Source of the DNA: a virus
Virus genome (UHGV): UHGV-0127376
Reading direction: 5' to 3' (one strand)
DNA length: 44,112 bases
Position 1 is the first letter of the stretch, and each line of letters opens with the position of its first letter. The notes beneath the pieces were generated by a model. That model had not been told where the DNA came from and did no database searches. It was given only the letters and a program-made list of their open reading frames with translations. Made by a program: the position numbers and the translations under genes. Below, in pieces: positions 13,531 through 37,845 of this stretch.

Positions 13531-15486
13531 ATGGCGTTAATTAGATTAGTAGCTCCAGAGCGGGTATTCTCCGACTTGGCGAGCATGGTAGCATATCCAA
13601 ACTTTCAGGTACAGGACAAGATTATCCTGCTGGGCAGCGCCGGTGGGGACTTCACCTTTACTACTGCCGCGTCGGTAGTGGATAACGGAACTGTGTTTGC
13701 TGTACCTGGTGGGTATCTACTCCGTAAATTCGTGGGTCCGGCATACAGCTCCTGGTTCAGCAATTGGGCGGGCATAGTAACGTTCATGAGCGCACCTAAT
13801 AGGCACCTGGTTGTGGACACAGTCCTGCAGGCCACGAGTGTGCTCAACATCAAAAGCAACTCTACGCTGGAGTTTACTGATACCGGAAGAATCCTGCCGG
13901 ATGCCTCGGTTGCACGTCAAGTGCTTAACATTATCGGCTCGGCACCCTCGGCATTCGTCCCGTTAGCGGCGGATGCCACAGCGGGCAGCAAAGTCATTAC
14001 GGTGGCTGCCGGGGCTTTGTCTGCGGTAAAAGGTACGTACTTGTATCTTCGCTCTAACAAGCTGTGTGATGGTGGTCCTAACACCTACGGTGTAAAGATT
14101 TCCCAGATTAGGAAAGTGGTGGGGGTTAGCACCTCCGGTGGCGTCACCAGTATTCGGCTGGATAAAGCGCTGCACTATAACTACTACCTGTCTGATGCCG
14201 CGGAAGTAGGTATCCCGACAATGGTGGAGAACGTAACCTTAGTATCCCCGTACATCAACGAGTTCGGCTACGACGATTTGAACCGGTTCTTTACTATCGG
14301 TATCTCTGCCAACTTTGCCGCGGACTTGCACATCCAGGACGGGGTTATTATTGGCAACAAACGCCCCGGGGCTTCTGATATAGAAGGGCGTAGTGCTATC
14401 AAGTTCAATAACTGCGTAGATAGTACCGTTAAGGGTACGTGCTTCTACAACATCGGATGGTACGGGGTAGAGGTGCTCGGCTGCTCAGAGGACACGGAAG
14501 TACACGATATCCACGCCATGGACGTACGCCACGCAATCTCTCTGAACTGGCAGAGCACTGCAGACGGGGACAAGTGGGGAGAGCCTATCGAGTTCTTAGG
14601 CGTTAACTGCGAAGCCTACAGCACAACCCATGCCGGGTTTGATACTCACGACATTGGTAAGCGTGTGAAGTTCGTTCGCTGCGTTTCATACGACAGTGCT
14701 GACGATGGGTTCCAAGCGCGCACTAACGGGGTAGAGTACTTGAACTGTCGAGCTTACCGCGCAGCATTTGATGGGTTCGCCTCCAACACCGGTGTAGGCT
14801 TCCCTATCTATAGAGAGTGCTTAGCTTATGACAACGTACGCTCTGGCTTTAACTGTTCGTACGGTGGTGGCTACGTTTATGACTGTGAGGCTCACGGTAG
14901 CCAGAACGGTGTCCGCACCAACGGGGGTTGTGTTAAAGGCGGTCGGTACACTCGCAACTCCAGCTCTCACATCTTCGTCACTAAGGATGTAGCTGAGACG
15001 GCGCAGACGTCCCTGGAGATTGATGGCGTGAGCATGCGCTACGACGGTACCGGAAGAGCTGTGTACTTCCACGGGACTATGGGCATTAACCCTACCATGG
15101 TATCTATGTCCAATAATGACATGACCGGTCACGGCTTGTCCTGGGCATTACTGAGTGGCTACACTGTTCAACCTACGCCTCCGCGCATGTCCAGGAACTT
15201 ACTGGATGACACAGGTATCCGTGGAGTGGCAACGCTGGTTGCTGGCGAGGCTACAGTCAACGCCCGTGTACGCGGAAACTTTGGCAGCGTAGCTAACTCC
15301 TTCAAGTGGGTGTCTGAGGTCAAGTTGACGCGGTTAACCTTTCCTTCTAGTGCTGGGGCCTTGACGGTTACTGGCGTAGCACAGAACCAGGATGTACCTA
15401 CACCTAATCCGGACCTAAACAGCTTCGTGATTAGGAGTAGTAACGCAGCGGATGTATCCCAGGTAGCCTGGGAGGTGTATCTCTAA
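13531..15486 (+). CDS. Tailspike protein, probable polysaccharide depolymerase
   Basis: 651 aa ORF at the end of the late region after the lysis genes; sequence rich in repetitive G/N/D/T segments typical of beta-helix tailspikes; no T7 gp17-type N-terminus, consistent with docking to the adaptor at 8595..9551. Confidence 0.6.
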   Translation: MALIRLVAPERVFSDLASMVAYPNFQVQDKIILLGSAGGDFTFTTAASVVDNGTVFAVPGGYLLRKFVGPAYSSWFSNWAGIVTFMSAPNRHLVVDTVLQATSVLNIKSNSTLEFTDTGRILPDASVARQVLNIIGSAPSAFVPLAADATAGSKVITVAAGALSAVKGTYLYLRSNKLCDGGPNTYGVKISQIRKVVGVSTSGGVTSIRLDKALHYNYYLSDAAEVGIPTMVENVTLVSPYINEFGYDDLNRFFTIGISANFAADLHIQDGVIIGNKRPGASDIEGRSAIKFNNCVDSTVKGTCFYNIGWYGVEVLGCSEDTEVHDIHAMDVRHAISLNWQSTADGDKWGEPIEFLGVNCEAYSTTHAGFDTHDIGKRVKFVRCVSYDSADDGFQARTNGVEYLNCRAYRAAFDGFASNTGVGFPIYRECLAYDNVRSGFNCSYGGGYVYDCEAHGSQNGVRTNGGCVKGGRYTRNSSSHIFVTKDVAETAQTSLEIDGVSMRYDGTGRAVYFHGTMGINPTMVSMSNNDMTGHGLSWALLSGYTVQPTPPRMSRNLLDDTGIRGVATLVAGEATVNARVRGNFGSVANSFKWVSEVKLTRLTFPSSAGALTVTGVAQNQDVPTPNPDLNSFVIRSSNAADVSQVAWEVYL

Positions 15487-15582
15487 GTAGCTCCCTGGGG
15501 TATCTCTATGGTATCCCGGGGCACTACTTGGGGTGCACGTCTATACCTGGACCTGAAATTTATTAGACTTTAAAATGAGGAT

Positions 15583-16044
15583 ATGTCTATGAACATCAAA
15601 TATGACACAACATCCCCTAGCTGCTTGGTGTGGCTCAAGGGTAGGCGCTCCGGTGCTCCAGCGGGTACCCGCAACACTCGTGGCTACTGGGTGGTACAGG
15701 TATCTGGTAGAAAGATACAGGCACACCGCCTCATCTGGGAACTACACAACGGGCCTATTCCAGACGGATATGTGGTGGACCACATCAACCAAAACCCCGG
15801 TGACAACAGATTAGAGAACCTGCGCTTAGCTACGGTTAGCGAAAACAACTGTAACGCACGCAGGTCTAAGCGGGAACATCCTAGGGGTGTATACTACACT
15901 GGCACCTGCTGGCGCGGGGAGTTCTGGAAGGACGGTAAGCGTTACATGAAGAAGCACAGCTCCTACGAAGTTATCTGCAAGTGGGTACTAGAGAAACGTC
16001 AAGAGCAACACAAGGCCTTCACCCCGGGGCAGGTGTATATCTGA
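15583..16044 (+). CDS. HNH homing endonuclease
   Basis: Motif VDHINQNPGDNRLENLRLATVSENNCN (HNH_3/AP2-type); free-standing between tailspike and repeat region. Confidence 0.8.
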   Translation: MSMNIKYDTTSPSCLVWLKGRRSGAPAGTRNTRGYWVVQVSGRKIQAHRLIWELHNGPIPDGYVVDHINQNPGDNRLENLRLATVSENNCNARRSKREHPRGVYYTGTCWRGEFWKDGKRYMKKHSSYEVICKWVLEKRQEQHKAFTPGQVYI

Positions 16045-16405
16045 AACCAAAAATTATTATACTCGCCCTTGAGCCTCCCTCACCCTCAACGACGCCAATT
16101 GCCCCCATAGGGGGTGCCTAGCGCATAAAAGGAGGGGTGGGGTGGGTGCCTAGACGTCTAGACGGCCCTAGGGCGCTCTCTGAGGTGTGGAGCGCCACGG
16201 CAGCTAAGACCGTGGCTATAGCGGAAGCCTCAGAGGGCCTCAGTGGCTCCCTGCGCTGCGCTGGGGCTATCGCTAGTGCTGCCCCACGGCTTGGCCTGTG
16301 CGTGGCACTGAGTGGCTCCTGTGCGCTCTACGGGGCACTAGGGGCTATCCCTGTGCGCTCCCTGTGGGCCATAGGGGTGCGCTCTGCCTTGCTTATTTTG
16401 CGCGT

Positions 16406-16462
16406 CCATAGTGGGCCCGCCTAGTGCCTGCATTGTGGGGCCATAGTGGGCCTGCCTAGTGC
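16406..16462. repeat. Two 22-bp direct repeats CCATAGTGGGCC(C/T)GCCTAGTGC (16406..16427, 16441..16462) with degenerate copies at 16105..16124 and about 16369..16388
   Basis: Read directly from sequence; part of an 822-bp non-coding, repeat-rich zone 16045..16866. Confidence 0.6.
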
Positions 16463-16658
16463 GCTGTAGTGCGTCACGGTGCTATCCCTAGTATGCACTA
16501 GGCTATCCACTGGCTATCCCTAGTGCTTTACATTGTGCCGATTATATGCTACGCTGCGCGCTCCCCACTAGGGCGCACATCCTCACCCAACACTATCCCG
16601 GCGCTATCTCTTTGCTATCCCTTTGCTCTTACTTTCATTCGAAAGCTGTCATGAAATG

Positions 16659-16675
16659 ATGTTACAGGAGTAGGA
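16659..16675 (+). promoter_or_regulatory. Copy 2 of exact 17-mer ATGTTACAGGAGTAGGA (candidate phage-RNAP promoter or other regulatory site)
   Basis: Identical 17-mer also at 5640..5656 and 37846..37862. Confidence 0.3.
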
Positions 16676-16866
16676 GGGTTTTAGGGCACTATATACACAC
16701 TACTTACTACTACTCACTAGTAGTCACTAGTATCCCCTAGTAATGCCCTGTATGACTGACCGTAGGGAGGGAAGCATTACCTAGAATCTTGTAACCTCCG
16801 CTCCTATCCCTCCGGGATATCGTCGCTATGGTTACGCTACTAATCACTATGTAAGGAGATATTGTT

Positions 16867-17283
16867 GTGGCTAGAACATTTAAGATTGTGGTTGATAAGG
16901 AAGGTTATCCAGTGATTAATGGTGCTGGGCCTGAGTATGTGAATAAGCGAGGTAAGAGAGACTATAAGACTGTGGCGCTGCATAGGGCCGTGGTTATGGA
17001 TGCTCTGGGAATCACTAGCTACGGTTCTGGCTATCACGTACATCACTGTGACAGTAACCGCCTTAACTGTGACTTCAATAACCTGATACTGGTTAGCGCT
17101 GACACTCACCGGGCCATACACTTAGCACAGATTCAGGAAGGGAGATGCTTCACAAAGGATGAGTTATTGGCTAGTCCTGAGTACGATACTAACTGGCGAG
17201 AGTTCGACGTGACTTATGGGGACTACAATAGTTTACTGCACGCAGACCTTTGGGGGTCTGCTTACTCTTTTTGCTCCCAGTGA
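16867..17283 (+). CDS. HNH endonuclease
   Basis: Motif YHVHHCDSNRLNCDFNNLILVSADTHRAIH; GTG start with SD AAGGAG 9 nt upstream. Confidence 0.75.
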   Translation: MARTFKIVVDKEGYPVINGAGPEYVNKRGKRDYKTVALHRAVVMDALGITSYGSGYHVHHCDSNRLNCDFNNLILVSADTHRAIHLAQIQEGRCFTKDELLASPEYDTNWREFDVTYGDYNSLLHADLWGSAYSFCSQ

Positions 17284-17303
17284 TAAAAAGTTTAAAAAAG
17301 TAC

Positions 17304-17333
17304 TTGCTTCTTTTGGTTCAATAGGGCTATAGT
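17304..17333 (+). promoter_or_regulatory. sigma70-like promoter (TTGCTT -18- TATAGT) with A/T-rich upstream element
   Basis: -35 17304..17309, -10 17328..17333; upstream AAAAAGTTTAAAAAAG. Confidence 0.35.
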
Positions 17334-17435
17334 TCAATCACCGGGAGGCACTGAGGCGCTAACCGGGGCAGAGTCGGGAGATTCAGCCGGATTAAAGCTA
17401 GATAGTGTGAAGGGTTAGACACTCAATAAAAAGAG

Positions 17436-17464
17436 TTGACACCGCGAAGAACATAAGCTAGATT
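17436..17464 (+). promoter_or_regulatory. sigma70-like promoter (TTGACA -17- TAGATT)
   Basis: Consensus -35 at 17436..17441, 17-nt spacer, -10 at 17459..17464; A-rich upstream. Confidence 0.5.
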
Positions 17465-17504
17465 GAATCCCGAAGTAAGCAGTAAGGCAGTAAGAAATAA
17501 ACGC

Positions 17505-17533
17505 TTGACAAGTTCTGATTCACTGAGTAACTT
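17505..17533 (+). promoter_or_regulatory. sigma70-like promoter (TTGACA -17- TAACTT), weaker -10
   Basis: Consensus -35 at 17505..17510; -10 match only 3/6. Confidence 0.3.
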
Positions 17534-17883
17534 AGATAGCGAACAAGGCAAGGATAACCACTCTAGGGCGCAAGGATGTGTGTCCCGTCGGATTAGGCTA
17601 GACGTTAAAAATGACCTCTTAAAGGTTTAGTAGTAAGCTGGTTTGCGGGGAGGCCCAGTACCTTGACTGGTACGTTGACGACCCACCCCTAGACAATCAG
17701 TTAAAGAGTAAACGTGCCGGACGTTATCACCGGGGTTCTGAGACAAACCACACTGTCGAGGCGAGAGCAGCTCGCTCCTCTGAATCGAGGGAACAAGGCG
17801 CGGAGTGTATCCCGCAAAGAGCATATAACATAGCGCAGCAGTAACAAGGTTGCGCTAGATTATGTTCTCTGAGAGGTAAGAGT

Positions 17884-18081
17884 ATGCGCAAATCAAAGCG
17901 TTTAGCATTACGGCGGAATATGCAATTATCACTGAATCCCACCGACGACGTGCCGCTTACTGTGAAGCCTAGCAAACAAGGGTTGAGCAGTGAGCACAGG
18001 GTGAGGGGAAAGCAAAAACAAAAGGGCAGTAGCAGGCAGCCATCTGGATGGCCTACTGTTAACTCCCAATTTGGTCGATAA
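17884..18081 (+). CDS. Possible first early ORF (basic, low-complexity 65 aa)
   Basis: ATG with SD AGAGG upstream, downstream of the promoter cluster; composition unusual so coding status uncertain. Confidence 0.3.
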   Translation: MRKSKRLALRRNMQLSLNPTDDVPLTVKPSKQGLSSEHRVRGKQKQKGSSRQPSGWPTVNSQFGR

Positions 18082-18085
18082 TTAC

Positions 18086-18117
18086 AGCCTATAGCATCCT
18101 ACGGGGTGCTATGTGAA
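18086..18117 (+). promoter_or_regulatory. Conserved 32-bp hairpin element, copy 1 (stem 18091..18099 / 18104..18112)
   Basis: 29/32 identical to 18802..18833; 9-bp stem with 4-nt loop. Confidence 0.4.
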
Positions 18118-18152
18118 GTAATTACCTAAACAACCAATCAAAGAGGTGCATT

Positions 18153-18728
18153 ATGACCCATTCAACTGGTAAAGTATTCAAGCTCACCGCTGCGGGCAGC
18201 ATTCGTAAAGCGCTGGGCGACGTAGTGGAAGCAAAGCGCAACATCACTATTAGCGCGCTCTTCCACGGCCTGATTAGCAGCAACGTTTCCTGGGCTATGG
18301 ATATGCAGCGCAGCGATGCCGCGGACTTCGATATGGTGCTGCGTACGCTGCTGCCTATCAAGTTCAACAAGGAGTCCGGCAAATACGAATTCAACGCGAA
18401 GAAGTGCTATGCGTCTGCTGAGAAGCTGGGCATCGAACTGGACACTATGCGTCTGGACTATAAACAAGCTGACAAGCAGGAGCGCGAAGTAATTGTAGCC
18501 AGCTTCTATAGCTCCTGTATGGCCCTGTACGCTGCCGAAGCGGAGCAGGTAAAGAATGACGCGCTGGATGCCGATGCAGTGCGCTTGCAAGCGCTGGGGC
18601 GCGTTAAAAACGCTATCAAGAAGGCAAAAGAGACTGGTGTAAGCGACGCTGACCTCGTGTCTATGCTGGTATCGCAGGGCGTGGATGTACGCGCTGTACT
18701 GGACGCAACTTTGAAGGCGGCGGCATGA
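18153..18728 (+). CDS. Early protein, unknown function
   Basis: 191 aa, SD AAAGAGGTG upstream; flanked by the two hairpin elements. Confidence 0.6.
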   Translation: MTHSTGKVFKLTAAGSIRKALGDVVEAKRNITISALFHGLISSNVSWAMDMQRSDAADFDMVLRTLLPIKFNKESGKYEFNAKKCYASAEKLGIELDTMRLDYKQADKQEREVIVASFYSSCMALYAAEAEQVKNDALDADAVRLQALGRVKNAIKKAKETGVSDADLVSMLVSQGVDVRAVLDATLKAAA

Positions 18729-18796
18729 GCGTAGAATTCATGGTTATCATAACGGCGGTGGTGCTGTTATTTGTAGTGGTGGGCGAATATCTCTAG
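18725..18796 (+). CDS. Possible 23-aa hydrophobic peptide (MSVEFMVIITAVVLLFVVVGEYL)
   Basis: ATGA overlap with upstream stop (translational coupling); single TM-like helix; too short for the ORF track. Confidence 0.3.
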   Translation: MSVEFMVIITAVVLLFVVVGEYL

Positions 18797-18801
18797 TAGC
18801 A

Positions 18802-18833
18802 AGCCTATAGCGTCCTGCGGGGCGCTATGTGAA
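18802..18833 (+). promoter_or_regulatory. Conserved 32-bp hairpin element, copy 2 (stem 18807..18815 / 18820..18828)
   Basis: A-T pair in copy 1 replaced by G-C pair here (compensatory change). Confidence 0.4.
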
Positions 18834-18857
18834 TGCAACTGGCGTATGAGGTTTCAT

Positions 18858-19079
18858 ATGAAAGCAATACTGGTCTATCCGGGCCATGAACTCTGGCCCG
18901 TGTGGTGCAATCGGGTATACGCAGAATACAACTACACTGTGGTCATATTCTCTGACAAAGACACTAATCAGGAATCCCCTTTAGAATTTGTGGATACCTA
19001 CACCGAAATGGCTGCCCGCACTGTGCTGGACGCCGTGAATCTTGGCATTATCAACGACTGGAGACAACTTTATGGTTAA
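18858..19079 (+). CDS. Early protein, unknown function
   Basis: ATG at 18858 preferred over 18846 because of SD GAGG 6 nt upstream; 73 aa. Confidence 0.5.
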   Translation: MKAILVYPGHELWPVWCNRVYAEYNYTVVIFSDKDTNQESPLEFVDTYTEMAARTVLDAVNLGIINDWRQLYG

Positions 19080-19335
19080 TGTATTCAACATCATTGTGAC
19101 CAGCGCTATGCTGGTGCTGGGCAACGACATAAACAACCCAATCCCATACTGCACTGTGCAGTTGCAGCAACCGGCAACGCAGGAGCCGCAGCCGCGCCCT
19201 GAGTACGACCTATTTGAAGACCCCGAGGGTGGTTGCAAAGAGCTGGGCGCACGTATCCTTGCGGCGGTGCAGGAGCAGTACCAGGACGCTGCGGTAACGC
19301 TCACGGTGGATGGTAAGAGCAATAACGAAATTTGA
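19072..19335 (+). CDS. Early protein, unknown function
   Basis: ATG 19072 overlapping upstream stop; ORF-track start 19042 is a TTG. Confidence 0.5.
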   Translation: MVNVFNIIVTSAMLVLGNDINNPIPYCTVQLQQPATQEPQPRPEYDLFEDPEGGCKELGARILAAVQEQYQDAAVTLTVDGKSNNEI

Positions 19336-19344
19336 GGTGGGGGC

Positions 19345-19524
19345 ATGCACGGAAAGAATCCTGAAACGCTGCTGATGCGTAAGCAGCAACCAACAATCGA
19401 CGGGCTGGCGCGGGAGTACAACGCGAAGGCAGCGCTGCGCCAGCACTATGAGAAACAAGCAAAGCGCCTGGGTATGACCCTGCGCGGCTACTGCTTCCGG
19501 TTTAATGTGCGGGGTGTAGTATGA
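19345..19524 (+). CDS. Small early protein (59 aa), unknown function
   Basis: ATG with SD GGTGGGGG; stop overlaps next start (ATGA); below ORF-track size cutoff. Confidence 0.45.
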   Translation: MHGKNPETLLMRKQQPTIDGLAREYNAKAALRQHYEKQAKRLGMTLRGYCFRFNVRGVV

Positions 19525-19739
19525 GCAAGCAGGACATTTATGACGTATATAAGCGCCCTAATGGGTTTCTTTACCGGGTACCTCTATTTAGTCCACTGCA
19601 CGCCCTCGCAGAATTCTATGCAGAGGAGACTAGACTGTGGTTGCCGTCCAGTCACACAGTTGGCGGGGTGGTAATGCTAAGTTGTAGCACCCTTGTGGCC
19701 CGCAACGTGGTATTCAAGGATAGCGCATGCTCACAGTAG
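19521..19739 (+). CDS. Early protein, unknown function
   Basis: 72 aa ORF in translationally coupled series. Confidence 0.45.
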   Translation: MSKQDIYDVYKRPNGFLYRVPLFSPLHALAEFYAEETRLWLPSSHTVGGVVMLSCSTLVARNVVFKDSACSQ

Positions 19740-20071
19740 ACGAAACAGCGCTGCTGTGCTGGCGTCTGCTGGAAACGCAGGGCAAGTGCGGTTGCACTTG
19801 GGAAACATTCAAAGAGGTTCCTAATGAACTCAAGCAAATCGTGCCAGTTGAGCGTCGATTACTCCGAGTTAGAAAAGAGGATATTGGCACTGTTCTCACA
19901 ACCTATCGAGAGTACACTGAGTCTGCCGCGCGGAAGCTGCAAGAGCACATTGCATTCGATGTGGTTGCAGCACTACGGCGGAATGGATACCGCGGAGCTT
20001 TTAAGCAATTTAGAGCCGCAGTCCGCGCCTATTATAAGCAGCAACAACTCTCCGCGTGGTACGCACGCTGA
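19727..20071 (+). CDS. Early protein, unknown function
   Basis: 114 aa ORF, start overlaps previous stop. Confidence 0.45.
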   Translation: MLTVDETALLCWRLLETQGKCGCTWETFKEVPNELKQIVPVERRLLRVRKEDIGTVLTTYREYTESAARKLQEHIAFDVVAALRRNGYRGAFKQFRAAVRAYYKQQQLSAWYAR

Positions 20072-20111
20072 ACTCTTAGTGCATGACGAAGTTCTATTAA
20101 CTCGGGAGCAA

Positions 20112-21794
20112 ATGAAAATGCAAGAAACTAACACAGCACCTATCGAATGGAAAGTAGTGTTACCGGAAGGTGCAAACGCACTGCCGATTAAAGAATCAAT
20201 GTATTCCAGCGGTGATTACTGGACCCCGTTCCAGGACTTGCAAATGCAAGGGGAGGACCATCCCCACACTGAGGGTCCGCTGCAGGTGCTTATGGGTCTC
20301 CGCACTGTCAGTGCGCACACTCCAGGCTTAGAGGTGACTATAGGCGGGGCACTGCACCCAGAGTATCGCGAATCAACGATGACGCTCGGCCCGTTGCAAA
20401 AGGTGGACCTGTACCGGTCCGGAACTTTCTGCGAACTCTTTGAACCGGTGCGAATCACCATAGACAGCAAGTTCTGGGAACGCCGCCGCGACTTCTATGA
20501 GGGCGAGGATGTAGTGGTTGAGCGCGTAGTTGCTTGCGTCGAAGAATTCACAGGTTACAAGGTGCACAAGCAGGCCGTGCAGTTATTTGAGCGCATCATG
20601 CTTGCACCAGAAGAGCAGCAGCGCCGCTTATACACTGGCTACGATTACGGCCGCCACACCCGCGATGGCAACTTAGCTGCGCTGCTCATGAAGTTGCACG
20701 GCTTCGTAGTGTCTAGATTCGCCGTGCCTTTGGGCTTTGGTTTCCGCAACGGCGAACCTATCGTGATGCTGGGGCAGCCGCGGATGCACAAGGACTTCGC
20801 AGCAGTTACTGAGTACCGCTGCGTAGAGATGCGCGTAGGTAAGTGGCTCGCTAACTACTACGGCAATGGCGTAGACTTCCGCGATGCTATCGAAGACCTC
20901 AAGGCTATGAACGTAGACCCTACAACGTACCTGTGCAAGACCGAGCAGGAATGGTACGACGCCTACGAGAATGGCCCGGGTAGCTGCATGAGCGGGTACT
21001 CATTTGAGCATAGCTCTGTGCGGACGTACGCTACCACCAGCCACGGGTTGCCGGATAATGGGCTGCGCCTGTTCATCCAGTACACCGGGGAGCTGTTCGG
21101 CGACGATTTCGAAGTGCAGGCACGGGCAATCGTTAACACAGAAACTAACGAGTACGTCCGCGCTTACGGCAACGCTGCGGATGCAATCCTGCGGGGGCAT
21201 GGGTACACCAAAAACATTGAATGTCTCGAAGGGGTAATGCTGGCGCGAATACCGCACCCAACATACAACGGCGCAGTGCTGATGCCATACCTAGATAGCA
21301 GCCAGTGCGGCGTAGATGAGTATGGGGATGATGCCTTTGTAATCCGTGATGCTTATGAGTACGAGGCACAAGACTCAGAAGGATACATCTACGTAGGCAC
21401 TGAGTCTGCTCGGTGCTGCTGCTGTGAATGTCGCTACTCTGTAGATGACATGCAGGAGACCGCAGATGGTGATATGGTCTGCGACGGCTGCGTAGAAGAA
21501 GGGGATTTTGTGTACGTAGTTGGGCGTGATGGTCTGCATAATCGCTGGAGCTGCACCTGGTCTGATTACCACGACGCCTATGTATACGACGAGGACATAG
21601 AGCGCTGCGAAGTAGAGGGTGTAGTGCACGACCAAGAGGAACTGGTGTTTGCACAGGACCGGCAAGTGCTTATTGAGCACGCAGAAGAACACCCAGTGCA
21701 CGGGTTAATTCTCACTGAGCATGCAGCTGATTGCTTGGGAGAGAAGTACCTGGGCAACGATGAAGATGAAGAAGAAGCAGAGGAGGCAGCTTAA
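20112..21794 (+). CDS. Large early protein with Cys cluster and acidic C-terminal tail, unknown function
   Basis: 560 aa from ATG 20112 (SD GGGAG); ORF frame is open back to 19824 but that overlaps the 19727..20071 gene; CCCCECRY...CDGC cluster; C-terminus NDEDEEEAEEAA. Confidence 0.6.
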   Translation: MKMQETNTAPIEWKVVLPEGANALPIKESMYSSGDYWTPFQDLQMQGEDHPHTEGPLQVLMGLRTVSAHTPGLEVTIGGALHPEYRESTMTLGPLQKVDLYRSGTFCELFEPVRITIDSKFWERRRDFYEGEDVVVERVVACVEEFTGYKVHKQAVQLFERIMLAPEEQQRRLYTGYDYGRHTRDGNLAALLMKLHGFVVSRFAVPLGFGFRNGEPIVMLGQPRMHKDFAAVTEYRCVEMRVGKWLANYYGNGVDFRDAIEDLKAMNVDPTTYLCKTEQEWYDAYENGPGSCMSGYSFEHSSVRTYATTSHGLPDNGLRLFIQYTGELFGDDFEVQARAIVNTETNEYVRAYGNAADAILRGHGYTKNIECLEGVMLARIPHPTYNGAVLMPYLDSSQCGVDEYGDDAFVIRDAYEYEAQDSEGYIYVGTESARCCCCECRYSVDDMQETADGDMVCDGCVEEGDFVYVVGRDGLHNRWSCTWSDYHDAYVYDEDIERCEVEGVVHDQEELVFAQDRQVLIEHAEEHPVHGLILTEHAADCLGEKYLGNDEDEEEAEEAA

Positions 21795-22855
21795 TGTTCT
21801 TGAATCCGCACGGGATTGATATGCAGCTGCTCTTGCAGATACTGCAAACGCACCGGCCTAGCTGGGGTAGCACTAAGTGGTTCGAGCCGCTGCTTATGCA
21901 GTCGCTACAGGCGCTGGGTAGTGGTATGCACTACGTAAAGGACAAGCACGGGAACTACTTCGTGCTGGTGGGGGACTCAGAGCAAAGTGACGTAGCGTTT
22001 ACGTCTCATCTCGACACAGTGGCACGACCAACCAGCGCTGCGCCGGACGTCGGCTGCACTAACAAGGGCGTGCTGTTCGTAAAGAATCCGCAACAAGCTG
22101 ACTGCTTGGGCGCCGACTGCGGCGCCGGTATCTACCTGATGCTGGAGATGCTGCGGCGCGGCGTGCACGGACGCTACTGCTTCTTCGTGGATGAAGAGGT
22201 AGGCTGCGAGGGTAGCGCTGCATCGGTCAAGGATGACTCTGGATTTTGGACTGGGGTCAAGGCGATGATTAGCTTCGACCGCCGCGGCGACGGTATCATT
22301 ACGCATCAAAGGTATATGCGCTGCTGCTCTGACACCTTTGCCAAGACCCTAGCAGAGCGCCTGGGACGCACGGAGCAGCACTTGCAGAAGGGTGTTTATA
22401 CTGACTCGGCTGAGTTCGTTGGCATCATTCCTGAGTGCACCAACGTCGGTGTAGGGTACATGCACGAGCACACCCCGGATGAGGTGCTGGACCTGAACAT
22501 ACTGGGCCAGGTGCTTGAGCGGGTACTACAAGACGGCACGTTCTCGCACCTCCCTATTGAGCGGGACCCGGCAGTAGCAGAGCCAGACCTATGCCAGTGG
22601 CTCGCTGCATCGACGCTCAGTTTACGGCAGCCGTGGGATATGCCGCCGGACGAGGACCCGCAGTTACTGGCCGCGTTCCGGGAAGTATCGCAGCTTTCTA
22701 AACAACAACTGGTTAGCTGGGTACAGGAGAATCCAGAGAAGGCGGCGGAGTACATAATGGTGTTCTCCGATTACGGCTTTAAAGAAGAACTGATTGAACT
22801 AGGCACCCGAGTCGTAGAAGACTGGGGCGGATACGATAATATTGTGGAGGGTTGA
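21794..22855 (+). CDS. Putative Zn-metallopeptidase / amidohydrolase-like protein (M20/M28-type motif order)
   Basis: Ordered motifs SHLDTV, GADCGAG, DEEVGCEGS, SFDRRGDG, HEHTPDE resemble H-x-D ... D ... EE ... D ... H metal ligands of the M20/M28 fold; unverified. Confidence 0.4.
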   Translation: MFLNPHGIDMQLLLQILQTHRPSWGSTKWFEPLLMQSLQALGSGMHYVKDKHGNYFVLVGDSEQSDVAFTSHLDTVARPTSAAPDVGCTNKGVLFVKNPQQADCLGADCGAGIYLMLEMLRRGVHGRYCFFVDEEVGCEGSAASVKDDSGFWTGVKAMISFDRRGDGIITHQRYMRCCSDTFAKTLAERLGRTEQHLQKGVYTDSAEFVGIIPECTNVGVGYMHEHTPDEVLDLNILGQVLERVLQDGTFSHLPIERDPAVAEPDLCQWLAASTLSLRQPWDMPPDEDPQLLAAFREVSQLSKQQLVSWVQENPEKAAEYIMVFSDYGFKEELIELGTRVVEDWGGYDNIVEG

Positions 22856-22857
22856 TT

Positions 22858-23304
22858 ATGTCTAAACTTTTTAAAGTAGGTGATAAGGTTCAGCGCATCA
22901 ATAAGATTGAAGGTAAGACCGTGCGCGGCGAGATAGTCACTAAGGGGCCTGGCCTCTATATAGACATCAAGCTAACCGAAGGCGCAGGGATTCATTATGC
23001 CGGGGATATCTATGGCGGCTCTGCCGACTTCTGGCAGCTAATCGAGGAGGCGGACGAGCTGCCACCGGTTCCGTCTAGTGTAGCATATTTAAACACTAAA
23101 CGAGACCCAGGAAACGACCAGCGGCTGGTATTAGAAAAGGACAGCGAGACTAACGAAGGACTACTATACATCGGAATAGTGCCTAGAAAAGGCAGCACCC
23201 GGGCAGAGCGAGAGATTGGTATTAATATGAGCCCCGATTCAGCCCTGCAGTTGGCACATGACATTCGTCGAATGGCTATGAAAGTTAAGCGAGAGATTCA
23301 GTAA
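22858..23304 (+). CDS. Early/middle protein, unknown function
   Basis: ATG 22858 with SD GGAGG; ORF-track start 22852 is TTG. Confidence 0.55.
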   Translation: MSKLFKVGDKVQRINKIEGKTVRGEIVTKGPGLYIDIKLTEGAGIHYAGDIYGGSADFWQLIEEADELPPVPSSVAYLNTKRDPGNDQRLVLEKDSETNEGLLYIGIVPRKGSTRAEREIGINMSPDSALQLAHDIRRMAMKVKREIQ

Positions 23305-24095
23305 TGGACCAGCCCTGGCTTAGAGCGTGCAAGCGCCTGGCCGTTGGGCAGAGGGCGCGCTTTCGGTGCTGCGGCAGGGACGCCGCCGGGGTGCTCTACA
23401 ATAACCCGGATGCCTGGGAATATTATTGCCACCGCTGCAAACAGGTGGGCAAGGAGCACAAGCAGTACCAGCGCATACAGTTACAGGAAGAGCCGAGGGT
23501 GCAGCCCTCTGCACCTGCAGATGCAATTTGCATTAGCCAAGCGCCTGCGGAAACGCAGAGTTTTCTTTACGGATTCCTGACCACAAAGGGAATCATGCCT
23601 GAAATGGTGGAGGATGCAGAATGGAGCAAAGAGAAACAGCGGATAATATTCCGTGTCGGAAGCGCTGCTCTGGGCCGTGCAGTGCATGCCCGACAGCAAC
23701 CGAAGTGGGTAATGTACGGCCAGCCAATGCCGTTCGCTGCCGCGGCACCTGCCGTAGCGCCGGATGTAGCTGCGGCCGCACCTCTAAAGGTCGTGCTCAC
23801 CGAGGACTATCTATCAGCGATCAAATATCAGCACGCGATTACGAACTACTCTGCAATGAACGTGCAGGCTATAGCTATGCTGGGTACTCGCTTGCCCGTG
23901 CAGTTAAGGGCGTGGCTGATACAGAACAAACCGACAGTGATACTGTCCCTGGATAATGACCAAGCGGGACACTCCGGCGCGGCCATGATACGGCGCGCGC
24001 TACGTCCCTTTATGTCGTGCCACGAAATCTACTACGACGGGGACCCAAAAGAGGCAACAATACAGGAGTTATTAGATGGTATTAGGCGCGTGTAA
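23304..24095 (+). CDS. DNA primase (zinc-binding + TOPRIM)
   Basis: N-terminal Cys motifs (RFRCCGRD ... YCHRCKQ) and TOPRIM-like VLTEDYLSA / ILSLDNDQAGHSGA. Confidence 0.8.
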   Translation: MDQPWLRACKRLAVGQRARFRCCGRDAAGVLYNNPDAWEYYCHRCKQVGKEHKQYQRIQLQEEPRVQPSAPADAICISQAPAETQSFLYGFLTTKGIMPEMVEDAEWSKEKQRIIFRVGSAALGRAVHARQQPKWVMYGQPMPFAAAAPAVAPDVAAAAPLKVVLTEDYLSAIKYQHAITNYSAMNVQAIAMLGTRLPVQLRAWLIQNKPTVILSLDNDQAGHSGAAMIRRALRPFMSCHEIYYDGDPKEATIQELLDGIRRV

Positions 24096-24522
24096 AGAGC
24101 ACAAACAGAAAGGCGGACCAAAGGGTTACGGAAATACCACGTTCAAAGGGCGGAAGATACCCCTGCATAGAAAGGTGTATTGCTCGGCGAACGATATATC
24201 TCCGGAGAGCATAGTGGGGCTAGTTGTGCGCCATAAGTGTGACAACCCGAGATGTATTAATCCCGAGCATTTAGAATTAGGTACGGTCAAGGATAACGTC
24301 CATGACTGTATTGCCAGGGGTAGGGCTAAACGCGGGGTTTCTAAAGGAGAGCATAATGGGTACTCCAAGCTAACGGAGCAACAGGTGGGCTATATCAGGG
24401 AGAACTACAGACGGTACAGCAGGGAGCACGGTATACCGGCTATAGCTGCCAGCCTTGGCGTGAGTGTGTCAGCAGTGCACGGTGTGTTGAAAGCTAAAAC
24501 TTGGAGGTTTAATTGGACCTAA
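24076..24522 (+). CDS. HNH homing endonuclease (paralog family A)
   Basis: Motif VVRHKCDNPRCINPEHLELGT; inserted between primase and helicase. Confidence 0.8.
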   Translation: MVLGACKEHKQKGGPKGYGNTTFKGRKIPLHRKVYCSANDISPESIVGLVVRHKCDNPRCINPEHLELGTVKDNVHDCIARGRAKRGVSKGEHNGYSKLTEQQVGYIRENYRRYSREHGIPAIAASLGVSVSAVHGVLKAKTWRFNWT

Positions 24523-25793
24523 TAGTAGTTAAAGCGATGTGCACGCAGAAGGTGTGGAACCGACTGCGTGAACAGATACCCAAGAGCATGCTAGCGCCGG
24601 ACACAGCGAACCTACTAGACTGGGTGGGGTTGTACTGGAACACGTACCCGGAGCACCAGGAGGTTCAGTGGGATGCAATGCAGAGCATGCTCAATCTCCG
24701 GGCGGGACACCTATCCCGGGAAGAGCGGGTAATCATGGACGAGCTTATGCGGGGAGTACAAGCCGTACCGCAGGATTCTGTGGTGGGGATTGTCCAGACC
24801 CTGAATGAGCTGGCCTACAGCGGAGAGGTGGCGGCGCTGACGCAGCGCTACCAAGACGGCGAGGAGATTGATTACCTACTGGAGATGAAGCACCTACAGC
24901 GCAAATACGGCGATGGTGCTGCGGTGCATGAGTCACTGCTTGAATGGGAGAGCGGTAGTGTTGACGAGATACTTGCCGCGACTGATGAGGGCGGCGGTCT
25001 TAAACTGGGCGTGTTCGAGCAACTCGCTAGCAACATCCGAGGTCTACGTGGCGGGGACTGCATCGCAGTGGCCGCCCCTGTGGACTCTGGTAAAACTAGC
25101 CTGCTTGCTGCTATTGCTGTGGACTTTGCTGAGCAGATGCAGCAGCAGCCGGAAGTATACGGGGACCGCCCGATTCTCTGGCTGGTTAACGAGGGCCCGG
25201 CGACGCGTACAGTGCCGAGGGTATATCAAGCGGCGCTGCACTGGACTCTGGCTGAGATTAAGGACCGGCACAGTAAGCAAGAGTTCGTGCCAGCCTACCT
25301 CAAGAAAGTAGGCAGGGCTGACCGGATTCGTGTTAAGGCTGCGCACTCCTTAACGATGGCGCAGATATCCACGCTCATGGAGGAGATGCGCCCTGCGGTA
25401 ATCATCATCGACATGGTGGCGAACATCCGTGGCGGCACTATGGAGACCGAGCACCAGAACCTCGAGGCGAAATGGCAGGAGCTGCGCATACTTGGGTGCG
25501 AGAACGACTGCGCTATTGTAGGCACTATGCAGCTTTCACTCGAAGGTTACAACATGCTGTTCCCGCCACTCACCGCTATGAAGCAAAGCAAGATTGGTGT
25601 ACAGGGTGCCTTGGACTTGGCGATTATGATGGGATGCTTGGACAGGAACGAGCAACCGCACATGCAAAACGTCCGTGGTATCAGTACTCCGAAGAACAAG
25701 ATGGCACTGTCTGGTAAAGAATCGCTCCTGCAATTCGAGGTGGGATTCGAGCCGGGGCGTTGCCGCTTTGACGAAGGCCAGATTAACCGGTGA
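24513..25793 (+). CDS. Replicative DNA helicase (DnaB-like)
   Basis: Walker A VDSGKTSLL and Walker B VIIIDMV; probable TTG start with SD GGAGG (alternative ATG 24537). Confidence 0.8.
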   Translation: MDLIVVKAMCTQKVWNRLREQIPKSMLAPDTANLLDWVGLYWNTYPEHQEVQWDAMQSMLNLRAGHLSREERVIMDELMRGVQAVPQDSVVGIVQTLNELAYSGEVAALTQRYQDGEEIDYLLEMKHLQRKYGDGAAVHESLLEWESGSVDEILAATDEGGGLKLGVFEQLASNIRGLRGGDCIAVAAPVDSGKTSLLAAIAVDFAEQMQQQPEVYGDRPILWLVNEGPATRTVPRVYQAALHWTLAEIKDRHSKQEFVPAYLKKVGRADRIRVKAAHSLTMAQISTLMEEMRPAVIIIDMVANIRGGTMETEHQNLEAKWQELRILGCENDCAIVGTMQLSLEGYNMLFPPLTAMKQSKIGVQGALDLAIMMGCLDRNEQPHMQNVRGISTPKNKMALSGKESLLQFEVGFEPGRCRFDEGQINR

Positions 25794-25798
25794 CTTCC

Positions 25799-25829
25799 CT
25801 AGCGCCTTCTATGAGGGCGCTATGTAGGT
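25799..25829 (+). promoter_or_regulatory. Hairpin element related to the 18086/18802 elements (TAGCGCC - loop - GGCGCTA TGTAGG)
   Basis: Shares 3' half GGGCGCTATGT with the early-region elements; about 20 nt upstream of ATG 25850. Confidence 0.25.
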
Positions 25830-25849
25830 ACATGGTATGGGAGGGTTAA

Positions 25850-26290
25850 ATGGAAATGAGTGAGTGTATCGACCACGGACGTTCGCGCAGCCTATCCCCA
25901 GAAGGCTACGCCTTGGTAGCTAAACCGGGGGTTAACAGTCGCTGCGTACGCCTGCACAGGCTGGTGCTGGCGGAGAAGTTAGGGGTGCCACTTAAAGCTC
26001 TAGATGGAGTGGTTGTCAGACACACCTGCGACAACCCGCGGTGCATTAACCCAGAGCACCTAATACCCGGAACCCCTGCAGATAACAACAAGGACCGAGC
26101 AGTGCGCGGTCGTAGTGCTAAGCGGGTGCCTAGCCGCCAACGCCTAACCCTTAAAGACTGCGAAGATATCTGCGCAAAGCATATACCTAGGGTTTATGGC
26201 GTCACCCACCTGGCCCGCGAGTACGGCGTAGACGCTAACGTCATATACAAAGTACTAAGAGGAGAGTACCCTTGTCAACAACCAGTATAA
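25850..26290 (+). CDS. HNH homing endonuclease (paralog family A)
   Basis: Motif VVRHTCDNPRCINPEHLIPGT; between helicase and DNA polymerase. Confidence 0.8.
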   Translation: MEMSECIDHGRSRSLSPEGYALVAKPGVNSRCVRLHRLVLAEKLGVPLKALDGVVVRHTCDNPRCINPEHLIPGTPADNNKDRAVRGRSAKRVPSRQRLTLKDCEDICAKHIPRVYGVTHLAREYGVDANVIYKVLRGEYPCQQPV

Positions 26291-28686
26291 TGCACATAGA
26301 TTTAGAGGTTCAAAACCATGAATATTACGGCTCTAAAGCAAGCCCATACTGCCCTGACAACTATGTTGTTGAGTCAGCATGGCGTATCGACACGACACAG
26401 GCTGACGGTACTACCACTGTTGGCGCGACTCAATCGGTGCGCTTCAATTCAAGAGCTGATTTCTTGGCGGGAAACAGTGCAGCAGAAGGCTGCCGGTGGT
26501 TTCATATCCCCGAGGATTGCTGGCTTATTGTTGCGCACAACGCAGCCTATGAGATTTCTTGGTTTCTCACGTACCAGCGACAGCAGTTTGAAGCCTTCCT
26601 CAAGCGCGGCGGCAGGGTGTTCTGCACAATGCACGGTGAATACATCGCCTCGGACTTTCAGAGCATGTATCCGTCATTGGACGAGACGGCTCCTAAGTAC
26701 GGCGGTACGCACAAAGTAGACGGGGTTAAGCTTCTGTGGGAGCAGGGTGTGCTAACCTCCCAGATTGACCCGATGCTGCTACATGACTACCTGGTTAACG
26801 GGGACATCCCGAACACGGCCCTGTGCTTCTACGGCCAGTGCGCTACGTTCGCCCAGCGCAATCAGATGCAGTACGTGTGGGAGCGTATGGATGCCTTGCT
26901 GGCTTGGGCGTACTGCGAATGGTTCGGCCTGTTCGTGAATATGCCAATTGCACGCAAGAACCAGGAGGAGCAGGAGCAGCGCATCCGTGAGATTAAGCAG
27001 GAACTGCAGCAGTACATCCCGAAGGACTTGCCGGAGACGCTGGACTTCAATTTCGGGTCGGACTTTCATATGTCTGCACTGGTGTACGGCGGGCCTATAA
27101 AGTACCGCAAGAAGGTCCCCTATGACCCTCCGCAGTACGTCAAGGCCGACTACTATAAGTACGAGGACGAAGATGGTGCGCACACCTATATACCTGTACA
27201 CGACACGCACATGCAAGAACTTCAAACGGAAGGCGGATGGTGGCGTGTAGTGACATATCGTGCGGGTAAGAACAAGGGGCTCCCTAAAGTATTCCGCCTC
27301 GATACCGAGGAAGAGAAACTTAAATGGGAAGACGACCTTTACTTCTGCCCGGGCCTAGTGAACATCCAGGAGCTTCCGGAAGTTATCCGGGAGAAGTACG
27401 CAGAGCGCGGGGAGTTCCGACAGGCGCGCACCCTGCAGGATGGCACCCCTGTGTATAGCACCAGCACTGATGCAATGGAGGCGCTGGCTCGCCAAGGGTT
27501 CGAGTTCTGTAAGTTGGTGAACGAACTGGCGGCGCTGGAGAAGGATACCGGCACTTACTATTTGCGAGAAGTACTGGACGCAGAAGGTAATGTAAAAGAG
27601 CGGAAGGGGATGCTGCAGTATGTAATCCCGGAGCGTCCCGATGGTTCCGGCATCATTCACCACCGGCTGAATACTTGCGCCACCGTAACCGGGCGCTTGA
27701 GTAGCTCTAACCCGAACCTGCAGAACCTACCCCGCCCGGATGAGGATGGCGACGGTGTGGCTAAATCCAAGGTGAAGCAGGTGTTCACCAGTAGATTCGG
27801 GGACAACGGACGTATCACTGAGGTTGACTACTCGGCACTGGAAGTGGTTATGTCCTGTGTACACACGGGTGACAAGAAACTGCTGGGACTGCTGCAGAGT
27901 GGTACGGATATGCACTGTTACCGCCTAGCTTTCCGCGAGGGATTACCGTATGAAGAAGTATATGAGCGCTGCCACAACAAGAAGCACGAGCTGCATCCGC
28001 TTTGGAAGGCAATGCGTACAGGTATTAAGGCTCCTAGCTTTGCAGCCCAGTATGGCGCTACGGCTAAGGGGATTGCGTTTGCTACTGGATGTACGGTGGA
28101 ATTTGCACAGGCTTTCTTGGACAACGAGGCTGCGCTGTTCCCGCAAACAATTGGCTTCCGCGCTGTTGTCAAGGAAGAGGTAGAACGTACCGGTGCGGAG
28201 GGGCGCATGTACCGGGAGCAGGCTGACGACGGCAGCTACCGAATCTACCGCATTGGGACGTGGACCAGCCCAGCCGGTGCCCGCTACAGTTTCCGTCAGA
28301 AAGAGCAGTGGAAAGAGGTTGTGCCTGGGCAGCGTAAGCAGAAGGTAATGGACTACAAGGAAACAGAGATGGCTAACTACTGGTGCCAGGGGGAAGCATT
28401 CTTCCTGATGGCGGTAGCCGCCGGTATGGTTCTGCGTGCACTCCTGGCCCGTGACTGGTTCGACAATCAGGTGTGCCTGATTACGAACGTGCACGATGCG
28501 TTGTATCTGGACAGCGCCAACCCGGAGGTTGGACGTGAGGCGAGCCTGCTGGTTAAGCAGTGCATGGAGGATGCACCTAAGCGTATTCACCAGCTCTGGC
28601 CTAACTACGGCATCATTGGTGAGGTCCCGTTCCCAGCAGAGGCTGAGATGGGTACGAGTATGTACAGTAAGGAGAAGGTAGAATGA
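26272..28686 (+). CDS. DNA polymerase (family A, T7 gp5-like)
   Basis: Exo motif HIDLE near N-terminus; polymerase motifs TGRLSSSNPNLQNLP and NVHDALYLD; start may be ATG 26290 rather than TTG 26272. Confidence 0.9.
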   Translation: MSTTSIMHIDLEVQNHEYYGSKASPYCPDNYVVESAWRIDTTQADGTTTVGATQSVRFNSRADFLAGNSAAEGCRWFHIPEDCWLIVAHNAAYEISWFLTYQRQQFEAFLKRGGRVFCTMHGEYIASDFQSMYPSLDETAPKYGGTHKVDGVKLLWEQGVLTSQIDPMLLHDYLVNGDIPNTALCFYGQCATFAQRNQMQYVWERMDALLAWAYCEWFGLFVNMPIARKNQEEQEQRIREIKQELQQYIPKDLPETLDFNFGSDFHMSALVYGGPIKYRKKVPYDPPQYVKADYYKYEDEDGAHTYIPVHDTHMQELQTEGGWWRVVTYRAGKNKGLPKVFRLDTEEEKLKWEDDLYFCPGLVNIQELPEVIREKYAERGEFRQARTLQDGTPVYSTSTDAMEALARQGFEFCKLVNELAALEKDTGTYYLREVLDAEGNVKERKGMLQYVIPERPDGSGIIHHRLNTCATVTGRLSSSNPNLQNLPRPDEDGDGVAKSKVKQVFTSRFGDNGRITEVDYSALEVVMSCVHTGDKKLLGLLQSGTDMHCYRLAFREGLPYEEVYERCHNKKHELHPLWKAMRTGIKAPSFAAQYGATAKGIAFATGCTVEFAQAFLDNEAALFPQTIGFRAVVKEEVERTGAEGRMYREQADDGSYRIYRIGTWTSPAGARYSFRQKEQWKEVVPGQRKQKVMDYKETEMANYWCQGEAFFLMAVAAGMVLRALLARDWFDNQVCLITNVHDALYLDSANPEVGREASLLVKQCMEDAPKRIHQLWPNYGIIGEVPFPAEAEMGTSMYSKEKVE

Positions 28687-28904: not shown

Positions 28905-29065
28905 TGATAGGTGGACCCTTGGGTGGTGTAGGGGGTTAGGGTAGCATGGAAATACACTGGGGTCAACTAAATAATTAAATAAAATTATTTGTTGACTCTA
29001 GCTTGATTCTGTGATTCATAGAGAATTAATGTGATACGAGTAGGAACAACACAAGAGGGTACCGA

Positions 29066-37837: not shown

Positions 37838-37845
37838 AAAATTTA

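Follow-up and report, generated by a model that had tools for sequence, protein, structure and literature searches.

The early intergenic hairpins R0.3, R0.5, R1, R1.1 and R1.3 of phage T7 are RNase III sites. The identities of these sites and their cleavage coordinates reportedly go back to the work of Dunn and Studier in 1983. All five fold alike, with an upper stem of 9-10 base pairs (bp), an internal loop and a lower stem of 5-9 bp, and they are capped by GCAA or UGCG tetraloops (GNRA or UNCG). Here, we analyse a pair of 32-nucleotide (nt) repeats in the virus genome UHGV-0127376, a stretch of 44,112 nt that we call the window and that is the complete, circularly permuted genome of a KP34-like Klebsiella phage (Drulisvirus, Autographiviridae). 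The repeats lie at 18086-18117 (copy 1) and 18802-18833 (copy 2) on the plus strand, and are the conserved core of a sense-strand RNA hairpin whose stem is under selection, a conclusion that is strongly supported. We further propose, with moderate confidence, that these hairpins are processing signals of the host RNase III.

The rules that govern RNase III substrates provide the basis for this comparison. In E. coli, the target of the enzyme lies within an 11-bp helix, in about two helical turns of (coaxially stacked) double-stranded RNA (Pertzev and Nicholson 2006; PMC1540722). The distal box consists of UA and UG pairs, and the proximal box of G-C, then A-U or U-A, then A-U, then A-U or U-A. 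Proximal positions 2 and 4 do not tolerate G-C, which acts there as an antideterminant, and native R1.1 has U.C at proximal position 4. Internal loops limit cleavage to one strand, leaving a protective 3' hairpin. The same study gives an upper product of 28 nt, which in our reading consists of 11 nt, the tetraloop and a further 13 nt. According to Altuvia et al. (2018; PMC6212723), the two positions that separate the cuts usually form pairs, at least one of them G-C or C-G. None of the new in vivo sites of Gordon et al. (2017; PMC5371410) is a perfect match to the consensus.

The core of the repeats has been described before. Eriksson (2015; PMC4411677) found the motif twice per genome, at the same positions of the early region, in KP34, SU503, SU552A, NTUH-K2044-K1-1 and F19, the last four being relatives of KP34 that are unrelated to SP6. 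These Kp34likevirus motifs were named 'putative phage promoters', with nick sites offered as an alternative, and their consensus, AGCCTATAGCGTCCTACGGGGCGCTATGTGAA, is identical to the window repeats. GenBank record KX856662.1 labels both cores (1802-1833 and 2981-3012, corresponding to 1508-1539 and 2687-2718 of our sequence L171) as 'promoter, discovered using MEME'. A polymerase chain reaction (PCR) fragment with the motif gave no RNA with the KP34 RNA polymerase in vitro (Lu 2019; PMC6834552). The annotation of KX856662 is contradicted by this published in vitro transcription: the motif is known, and its published reading as a promoter is refuted. Our analysis adds to it an extent of about 50 nt, RNA covariation and an occurrence outside the genus. 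In the literature that we searched, which omits much older phage work, we found no published statement of the extended structure, of the covariation, of the occurrence in other phage families or of a reading as RNase III sites.

Sequence and structure of the repeats

An earlier note, made from the sequence alone, described the copies as 29/32 identical, with a loop of 4 nt each, and we retrieved both features. Repeats of this kind are not expected by chance: the expected number of such 32-mers, as estimated by shuffling, is 0. The stem of each copy has 10 pairs instead of the nine given in that note, and two of these are G.U pairs, one terminal and one internal (both U.G). The tetraloops are of the UNCG type and are closed by a C-G pair, c(UACG)g in copy 1 and c(UGCG)g in copy 2. 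Of the three differences between the copies, one is the A/G in the loop, and the remaining two fall on opposite sides of the same pair, which is A-U in one copy and G-C in the other. This is the compensatory change that had been pointed out. Folding energies are -19.4 kcal/mol for copy 1 and -21.6 kcal/mol for copy 2, with z-scores relative to shuffled sequences of -4.9 and -3.3, respectively.

When the copies are folded together with their flanks, a lower stem appears outside the 32-mer and the element extends to about 50 nt. It is a two-tier hairpin, with an upper stem of 10 bp, a 4x4 internal loop and a lower stem of 6-9 bp, i.e. about two helical turns in all. The internal loop is AGCC opposite UGAA and holds one isolated C-G pair. 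The whole hairpin of copy 1 spans 18079-18124 on the plus strand, as indicated by the fold and by the match of a covariance model (see below). Its lower stem, UAAUUAC/GUAAUUA, pairs 18079-18085 with 18118-18124. Within the conserved 32-nt core (18086-18117), which is the published motif, AGCC at 18086-18089 faces UGAA at 18114-18117, the isolated pair is C18088-G18115, and the upper stem pairs 18090-18099 with 18104-18113 around the loop UACG (18100-18103). The hairpin of copy 2, identified by the same two means, spans 18793-18842 on the plus strand. Its lower stem, CUAGUAGCA/UGCAACUGG, pairs 18793-18801 with 18834-18842 and has one A.A mismatch, while the core (18802-18833) contains the upper stem 18806-18815 with 18820-18829 and the loop UGCG at 18816-18819.

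Intrinsic terminators resemble these elements in that a G+C-containing hairpin with a stable tetraloop follows a gene. However, they have a U-tract and lack the lower stem and the internal loop. No U-tract follows either copy, where the stems run into UGUGAAGUAAUU and UGUGAAUGCAAC, and neither repeat was called by the terminator scan or by the scan for sigma-70 promoters. This agrees with the earlier view that they are not classic terminators. A terminator is present elsewhere in the window, at 42655-42682 on the plus strand (GCCCCTGGTGCC-ttcg-GGTGCCAGGGGC followed by T9), and is identical to the published one of KP34-like phages. The search of positions 16000-27000 with Rfam cmscan, at E up to 10, gave no match relevant to the repeats, and two chance-level matches elsewhere.

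Covariation and strand specificity

We collected further copies of the element from three sources. The first was a set of 40 IMG/VR relatives reached through the 191-amino-acid protein encoded between the repeats. The second was a pattern scan of IMG/VR, with many chance matches among the matches listed, that we filtered by requiring the upper stem. The third was a covariance model built from 41 diverse copies. The lower stem took no part in the selection of sequences. In the first alignment (41 sequences), 90.7% of the cells were paired, as compared with 23-46% when the partners were slid, changes on both sides were found in 12 of the 20 pairs, and three of the five measures were above all 500 shuffles. 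As to the other two measures, 264 of the 500 shuffles also reached the number of pairs with both-sided changes (12), and 34 the number of further pair types. In the larger alignment (86 sequences, 72 of them distinct), 91.4% of the cells were paired (22-44% with partners slid), both-sided changes were found in 14 of the 20 pairs, and all five measures were above all 500 shuffles.

The changes affect both tiers of the hairpin. Each of the lower-stem pairs (alignment columns 6-12 with 46-52) occurs as three to five pair types, with variants such as AAUUAC/GUAAUU, GGUUAAU/AUUAACC, AUGGUA/UACCGU, GAGUGAUG/CAUCAUUC and GAGUAAAUA/UAUUUACUU. The top of the upper stem also covaries (AUCC/GGGU, GUCC/GGGC, CUGC/GUGG, CUUC/GAGG), and the copy of SP6 has a U-A in place of a C-G within the otherwise invariant core. 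Other positions are nearly fixed: among the 72 distinct sequences, the isolated C-G pair is kept in 71, the U.G at the foot of the upper stem in 71, and the U.G third from the loop in 69. The check by covariance across homologous phages that the earlier note had suggested is positive for the lower and the upper stems alike, and its argument for selection on structure, made there from one pair, is strongly supported by the RNA covariation across many phages.

The signal is confined to one strand. The covariance model matches copy 1 at 18074-18129 with 70 bits and copy 2 at 18790-18845 with 69 bits, in both cases on the plus strand only; scores on the minus strand of the window are 12-14 bits. 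Outside the window, 86 of 86 model matches, from 48 loci, are on the sense strand, and the copies whose gene context we examined are all intergenic. G.U accounts for 13% of the paired cells and would be C.A on the opposite strand. The plus strand folds better in 39 of the 41 sequences. Together, the G.U pairs, the restriction to one strand and the better folding of the plus strand argue against a site in duplex DNA.

Distribution among other phages

The element is not specific to KP34-like phages. The same core, in the same two-tier frame, is found in SP6 between genes 6 and 7, in K1-5 between genes 5 and 6, and in ACG-C91 and K1E between gp46 and gp45, upstream of the polymerase gene. It is also present in the early region of Klebsiella SP6-like phages (K1-ULIP33 and its relatives), between the SAMase gene and gp02 in J8-65 (Bonnellvirus), and directly upstream of the homologue of the 191-amino-acid gene in the Pectobacterium phages PPWS1 and CB5. 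In phiEco32 (Kuravirus), it lies on the sense strand of a leftward operon and overlaps the end of the phi32_91 coding sequence. The family model finds no copy in the early region of T7. The one Vibrio relative that we examined, a 5.5-kilobase (kb) stretch of vB_VpP_3, encodes a homologue of the 191-amino-acid gene but shows no comparable hairpin there. The genes 3' of the element belong to unrelated families. For example, gp02 of J8-65 has no similarity to the 191-amino-acid protein. We therefore rejected a gene-specific translational operator, since the genes downstream are unrelated across phages, and the translational role listed among the earlier candidates is unlikely for the same reason. 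Because the element is common to enterobacterial phages that differ in their polymerases and in the neighbouring genes, its distribution points to a host factor as the reader of the signal.

This factor could be something other than RNase III. A different sequence-specific RNA-binding protein, either of the host or an early protein shared by the phages, might bind the hairpin and act in translation, antitermination or decay. The core and the single-stranded AGCC/UGAA are near-invariant across genera, while RNase III sites are usually less conserved, as one would expect if such a protein were involved. Yet the element precedes non-homologous genes, and Drulisvirus, SP6-like phages and phiEco32 have no identified phage protein in common. 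Furthermore, the proteins encoded by the neighbouring genes have no known RNA-binding domain, and the element has no match in Rfam. We regard this explanation as unlikely.

The distribution also bears on the promoter reading, in which the motif would be recognized by a single-subunit RNA polymerase of the phage or by a modified host polymerase. The SP6 polymerase recognises a different promoter, and phiEco32 is not known to have a phage single-subunit polymerase; the element occurs in both phages. The motif does contain CTATAG, which is reminiscent of the 3' part of T7- and SP6-type promoters, it is labelled as a promoter in KX856662 and by Eriksson (2015), and the published negative test was run on a linear PCR template. 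However, the KP34 polymerase made no transcript from it, and the real KP34 promoters are T(A/G)ATGTTACAGGAGTA and a weak one within the polymerase gene (PMC6834552). Exact matches to the strong promoter T(A/G)ATGTTACAGGAGTA are found in the window at 5638-5653, 16657-16672 and 37844-37859, all on the plus strand, and none at the repeats. There is no sigma-70 match at the repeats either, and a promoter would leave the RNA covariation, the conserved G.U pairs and the use of one strand unexplained. The promoter reading, which the earlier note had retained as an early or middle promoter, is largely refuted, and we consider it very improbable. Concerning the strong promoters themselves, one copy falls within a 1232-amino-acid open reading frame (ORF; 4895-8593). 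The copy at 37844-37859 is directly 3' of an 822-amino-acid ORF (35369-37837), which fits the published KP34 layout with a strong promoter after the polymerase gene.

Comparison with RNase III processing signals

The T7 early sites are intercistronic, sense-strand elements of an early polycistronic transcript of the host polymerase, as are the repeats. They also have an upper stem of 9-10 bp with a stable tetraloop (UGCG in R1 as well), an internal loop and a lower stem, and a U.G placed eight positions above the C.U (or A.A) mismatch at the foot of the upper stem. In both cases, the sequence around the internal loop is conserved between the copies of one genome. The two groups differ in their cores, AAGGUC...GGCCUUUAUGAU in T7 and CCUAUAGC...GCUAUGUGA in the repeat family. 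They also differ in their internal loops, which are asymmetric in T7 but symmetric (4x4, with a C-G pair) in the repeats, where cleavage is a prediction.

A third hairpin of the window belongs to this comparison. The earlier note had placed a diverged relative of the repeats at 25799-25829, before an HNH gene. We found there a genuine, conserved hairpin of the same structural class, at 25790-25833 on the plus strand, between the genes of a DnaB-like helicase and an HNH endonuclease. It belongs to another sequence family, and we did not file it with the repeats because their covariance model gives it no score. Its upper stem pairs 25800-25809 with 25813-25822 around the loop UAU, the isolated pair is C25798-G25824, and the lower stem pairs 25790-25796 with 25826-25833. 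It has an 11-nt 3' arm (GGGCGCTATGT) in common with copy 2. Conservation of this 43-nt hairpin extends to about 240 Drulisvirus records, with similarity stopping directly after it. Some records have only the 43-nt hairpin in common, and few have the adjoining HNH gene.

We compared the three elements pair by pair, counting from the apical loop. Pairs 1 to 11 of R1.1 are C-G, U-A, U.G, A-U, C-G, U.G, G-C, G-C, A-U, A-U and C.U. Those of copy 1 are C-G, C-G, U.G, A-U, C-G, G-C, A-U, U-A, A-U, U.G and C.U, and those of the hairpin near 25800 are C-G, U-A, U.G, C-G, C-G, G-C, C-G, G-C, A-U, U-A and C.U. Positions 12-14 of copy 1 are C-G, G.A and A.A, after which the lower stem begins. The U.G at position 3 (distal-box position 2) and the C.U at position 11 (proximal-box position 4) are eight apart in copy 1, as in R1.1, R0.3 and R1. 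In our alignment on the T7 coordinates, the distal box of copy 1, C-G/U.G, is that of R0.3 and R1. The proximal box of both copies is U-A, A-U, U.G and C.U, without G-C at positions 2 and 4. The third hairpin has the canonical UA/UG distal box and the proximal box G-C, A-U, U-A and C.U. With 10 bp in the upper stem, four positions in the loop, of which one is paired, and 6-9 bp in the lower stem, the repeats provide about 20-23 positions, i.e. about two helical turns. The conserved 4x4 loop starts at position 11, like the C.U of R1.1, and would direct cleavage to one strand. Between the predicted cuts, position 12 is the isolated C-G and position 13 is G.A, such that one of the two is paired.

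Hairpins of T7-like shape are also found in other phages. We identified 23 further ones in J8-65, SP6, ACG-C91, CB5, PPWS1 and the Erwinia phage Micant, mostly in annotated gaps between early genes. J8-65 is the most informative: T7-like hairpins occupy five early gaps, and a UAUAGC-type element occupies the sixth gap of the same operon. One of its hairpins is near-identical to T7 R1 (CAGGCCAUC-UGCG-GGUGGCCUG), and one has the T7 frame ACUCAAG...CUUUAUG. That the T7-type and the UAUAGC-type families fill equivalent places in different gaps of one operon is our main argument that the two do the same job. Overall, two-tier hairpins are present in six of the six early gaps of J8-65 (1933-3968 of L168), in four of Micant (1616-3997 of L043) and in three of CB5 (1787-2779 of L042). 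Several of these have in common a lower stem of GCGUGAUU, which holds the upstream stop codon, and AAUCAUGC. A MAFFT alignment of 23 early hairpins other than the UAUAGC type (T7, J8-65, SP6, ACG-C91, CB5, PPWS1 and Micant) was structurally inconsistent and gave no basis for a class-wide model.

From the structure, strand, context and distribution of the hairpins, and from their fit to the rules described above, we infer cleavage: the two repeats and the hairpin near 25800 are probably processing signals of the host RNase III that leave a 3' hairpin on the upstream message. RNA processing by RNase III or RNase E was among the roles proposed in the earlier note. We favour processing, specifically by RNase III. 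The signals would lie between cistrons, in early and middle messenger RNA (mRNA) made by the host RNA polymerase, with the T7 early sites R0.3 to R1.3 as the model for the mechanism. RNase III would bind the stacked helices and, owing to the internal loop, would cut only the 3' strand, at a distance of 13 nt from the loop (UGUGA^A). The main cut is predicted after UGUGA, i.e. at 18116/18117 in copy 1 and 18832/18833 in copy 2; that of the third hairpin is predicted at 25825/25826. In copy 1, the predicted product runs from C18089 to A18116, and the 32-nt core equals such a 28-nt product with 3 nt added at the 5' side and 1 nt at the 3' side. The upstream message would then end in a stable 3' hairpin that would block 3'-5' exonucleases, and the downstream cistron would be freed with a short 5' leader. 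A role as a stability element, also suggested previously, fits as a consequence of single-strand cleavage that leaves the 3' hairpin upstream.

Stability could also be obtained without any cut by RNase III. The hairpins might be passive elements of mRNA stability or insulation, either blocking exonucleases or protecting the 5' end after cleavage elsewhere (e.g. by RNase E). The very stable stem, the UNCG-type tetraloop, the position directly after stop codons and the AU-rich single-stranded sequence 3' of copy 1 would all suit this role. But a passive hairpin has no need for a covarying lower stem, for a 4x4 loop with an invariant C-G or for fixed U.G pairs, and these are the features that match the reactivity elements of RNase III. 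We see this alternative as possible, if rather doubtful.

Several observations weigh against processing by RNase III. In the repeats, proximal position 1 is U-A instead of G-C, proximal position 3 is U.G instead of A-U, and distal position 1 is C-G instead of U-A, and such changes lowered binding or cleavage in the uR1.1 RNA (PMC1540722). The lower stem is short, and that of copy 2 has the A.A mismatch. RNase III is not known to require a sequence as conserved as the core CCUAUAGC...GCUAUGUGA is among distant phages, and this conservation could reflect another sequence-specific factor or simply horizontal spread. Shape alone is not diagnostic: a hand-written descriptor of the two-tier hairpin matched several coding-region sites of the window. 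It also failed to pick up copy 2, the third hairpin, and R1.1 and R1.3 of T7, and was dropped. The T7 coordinates of our alignment, reportedly those of Dunn and Studier, have only an indirect check in the size of 28 nt that PMC1540722 gives for the product; the two T7 records that we examined carry no RNase III site annotation. Finally, the literature searched contained no transcript-end mapping of Drulisvirus and no RNase III sites in phiKMV-, KP34- or SP6-like phages.

Early-gene cassettes at the hairpins

The hairpins coincide with break points of early- and middle-gene modules, which is probably a by-product of the repeated sequence. Two Drulisvirus contigs of IMG/VR, L071 and L162, illustrate this. 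The 191-amino-acid gene was not found in them (the small hydrophobic ORF that follows it in the window was not searched for), and one hairpin, a hybrid flanked like copy 1 on its 5' side and like copy 2 on its 3' side, is found at 9130-9184 of L071 and 205-259 of L162. The hybrid joins the homologues of the upstream 65-amino-acid gene and of the downstream 77-amino-acid gene, and the halves of its lower stem no longer match. Conversely, three copies are present in L004 (1519-1662), L025 (3830-3977) and L029 (3834-3977), two of which stand in tandem upstream of the 191-amino-acid gene, with 56-60 nt between cores. The extra copy has a lower stem of its own, GGUUAAU/AUUAACC. As a side effect, identical copies would provide short homology blocks for the gain, loss or exchange of early-gene cassettes.

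These variants could instead indicate that the element works in DNA, as a recombination linker or module junction, a nick site (the alternative of Eriksson 2015) or a replication signal. The two relatives without the cassette keep exactly one hybrid repeat, some genomes have three copies, and similarity stops at the third hairpin, next to which an HNH gene is inserted. However, one would not expect a site in duplex DNA to conserve G.U pairs, to be restricted to the sense strand or to change in ways that preserve RNA pairs, and recombination is a by-product of any repeated sequence. A function in DNA thus seems quite improbable.

The promoter-early stem-loop (PeSL) cassettes of T4-type phages, reportedly described by Arbiol and colleagues in 2010, are a further point of comparison. 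Like the repeats, PeSL are short conserved stem-loops that flank small early genes of unknown function and are associated with gene gain and loss. Unlike them, they include an early promoter, of which none is evident here, and the likeness concerns genome plasticity only. The CCUAUAGC...GCUAUGUGA hairpin might in this respect be a horizontally mobile junction module of otherwise unrelated enterobacterial phages (KP34-like, SP6-like, J8-65-like and Pectobacterium phages and phiEco32), combining an RNA signal for a host factor (not necessarily RNase III) with a block of homology for cassette swaps. We put this forward tentatively, as a proposition with a small chance of being right; if true, the module would be the podovirus counterpart of the T4 PeSL cassettes.

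Genomic context

A query of 1.3 kb around the repeats matches 291 phage records, mostly of Klebsiella phages. In genomes with the conventional orientation, the distance of the match from the left end is 1.2-2.8 kb. Upstream of the repeats, the promoter scan identified an early promoter of the sigma-70 type (TTGACA, 17 nt, TAGATT) at 17436-17464 on the plus strand, with the sequence of a host promoter in the list of Eriksson (2015; PMC4411677). Because of this upstream promoter, both repeats are expected to be inside the early transcript that the host polymerase should make.

The cassette between the repeats (18153-18796, plus strand) consists, as had been noted, of one gene and a tiny hydrophobic ORF. 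The gene (18153-18728, plus strand) encodes the 191-amino-acid protein, which belongs to PHROG 5277 and has no known function. The ORF (18725-18796) encodes 23 amino acids, MSVEFMVIITAVVLLFVVVGEYL, and its stop codon is inside the lower stem of copy 2. The hairpins begin within a few nt of the upstream stop codon and end 12-35 nt ahead of the next start. A distance of 25-35 nt to this start had been given for both copies. The core of copy 1 ends 35 nt before the ATG at 18153, and that of copy 2 ends 12 nt before the ATG at 18846 and 24 nt before the one at 18858. The latter is probably the real start of the downstream gene, since the PHROG profile alignment begins at residue 5.

The window has further hairpins. 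Its strongest one, at 15481-15533 on the plus strand (about -34 kcal/mol), is also two-tier, with an upper stem of 12 bp and a lower stem of 10 bp on either side of a 2x2 internal loop, and lacks a U-tract. It overlaps the end of a 651-amino-acid ORF (13531-15486), runs past its stop codon, and could be a processing or 3'-end element of late transcripts. A very A+T-rich perfect hairpin, AAAUAAUU...AAUUAUUU, lies within a G+C-richer stem at 28957-29001 (plus strand), in a 161-nt gap (28905-29065) after an 804-amino-acid ORF (26272-28686); the fold of this gap has a z-score of -4.7. At 43815-43833 on the plus strand, we found CCGGGGTA-gat-TACTCCGG, where TACTCCGG resembles the 3' part of the nick-site consensus that is reported for phiKMV-like phages.

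Implications

The motif analysed here is the only long repeated motif of KP34-like phages. It was predicted to be a promoter in 2015 and this was disproved in 2019, such that processing by RNase III would supply it with a function. At least one GenBank record (KX856662) still needs correction of the label 'promoter'. The hairpins mark natural break points for the deletion or insertion of early genes, as shown by the natural deletion variants, and are compact, portable parts to stabilise or separate cistrons in engineered phages of Klebsiella and E. coli. If our proposal is true, they would constitute a second, easily recognised sequence family of RNase III sites, and the T7 style of early mRNA processing would extend to phiKMV/KP34-like, SP6-like and phiEco32-like phages.

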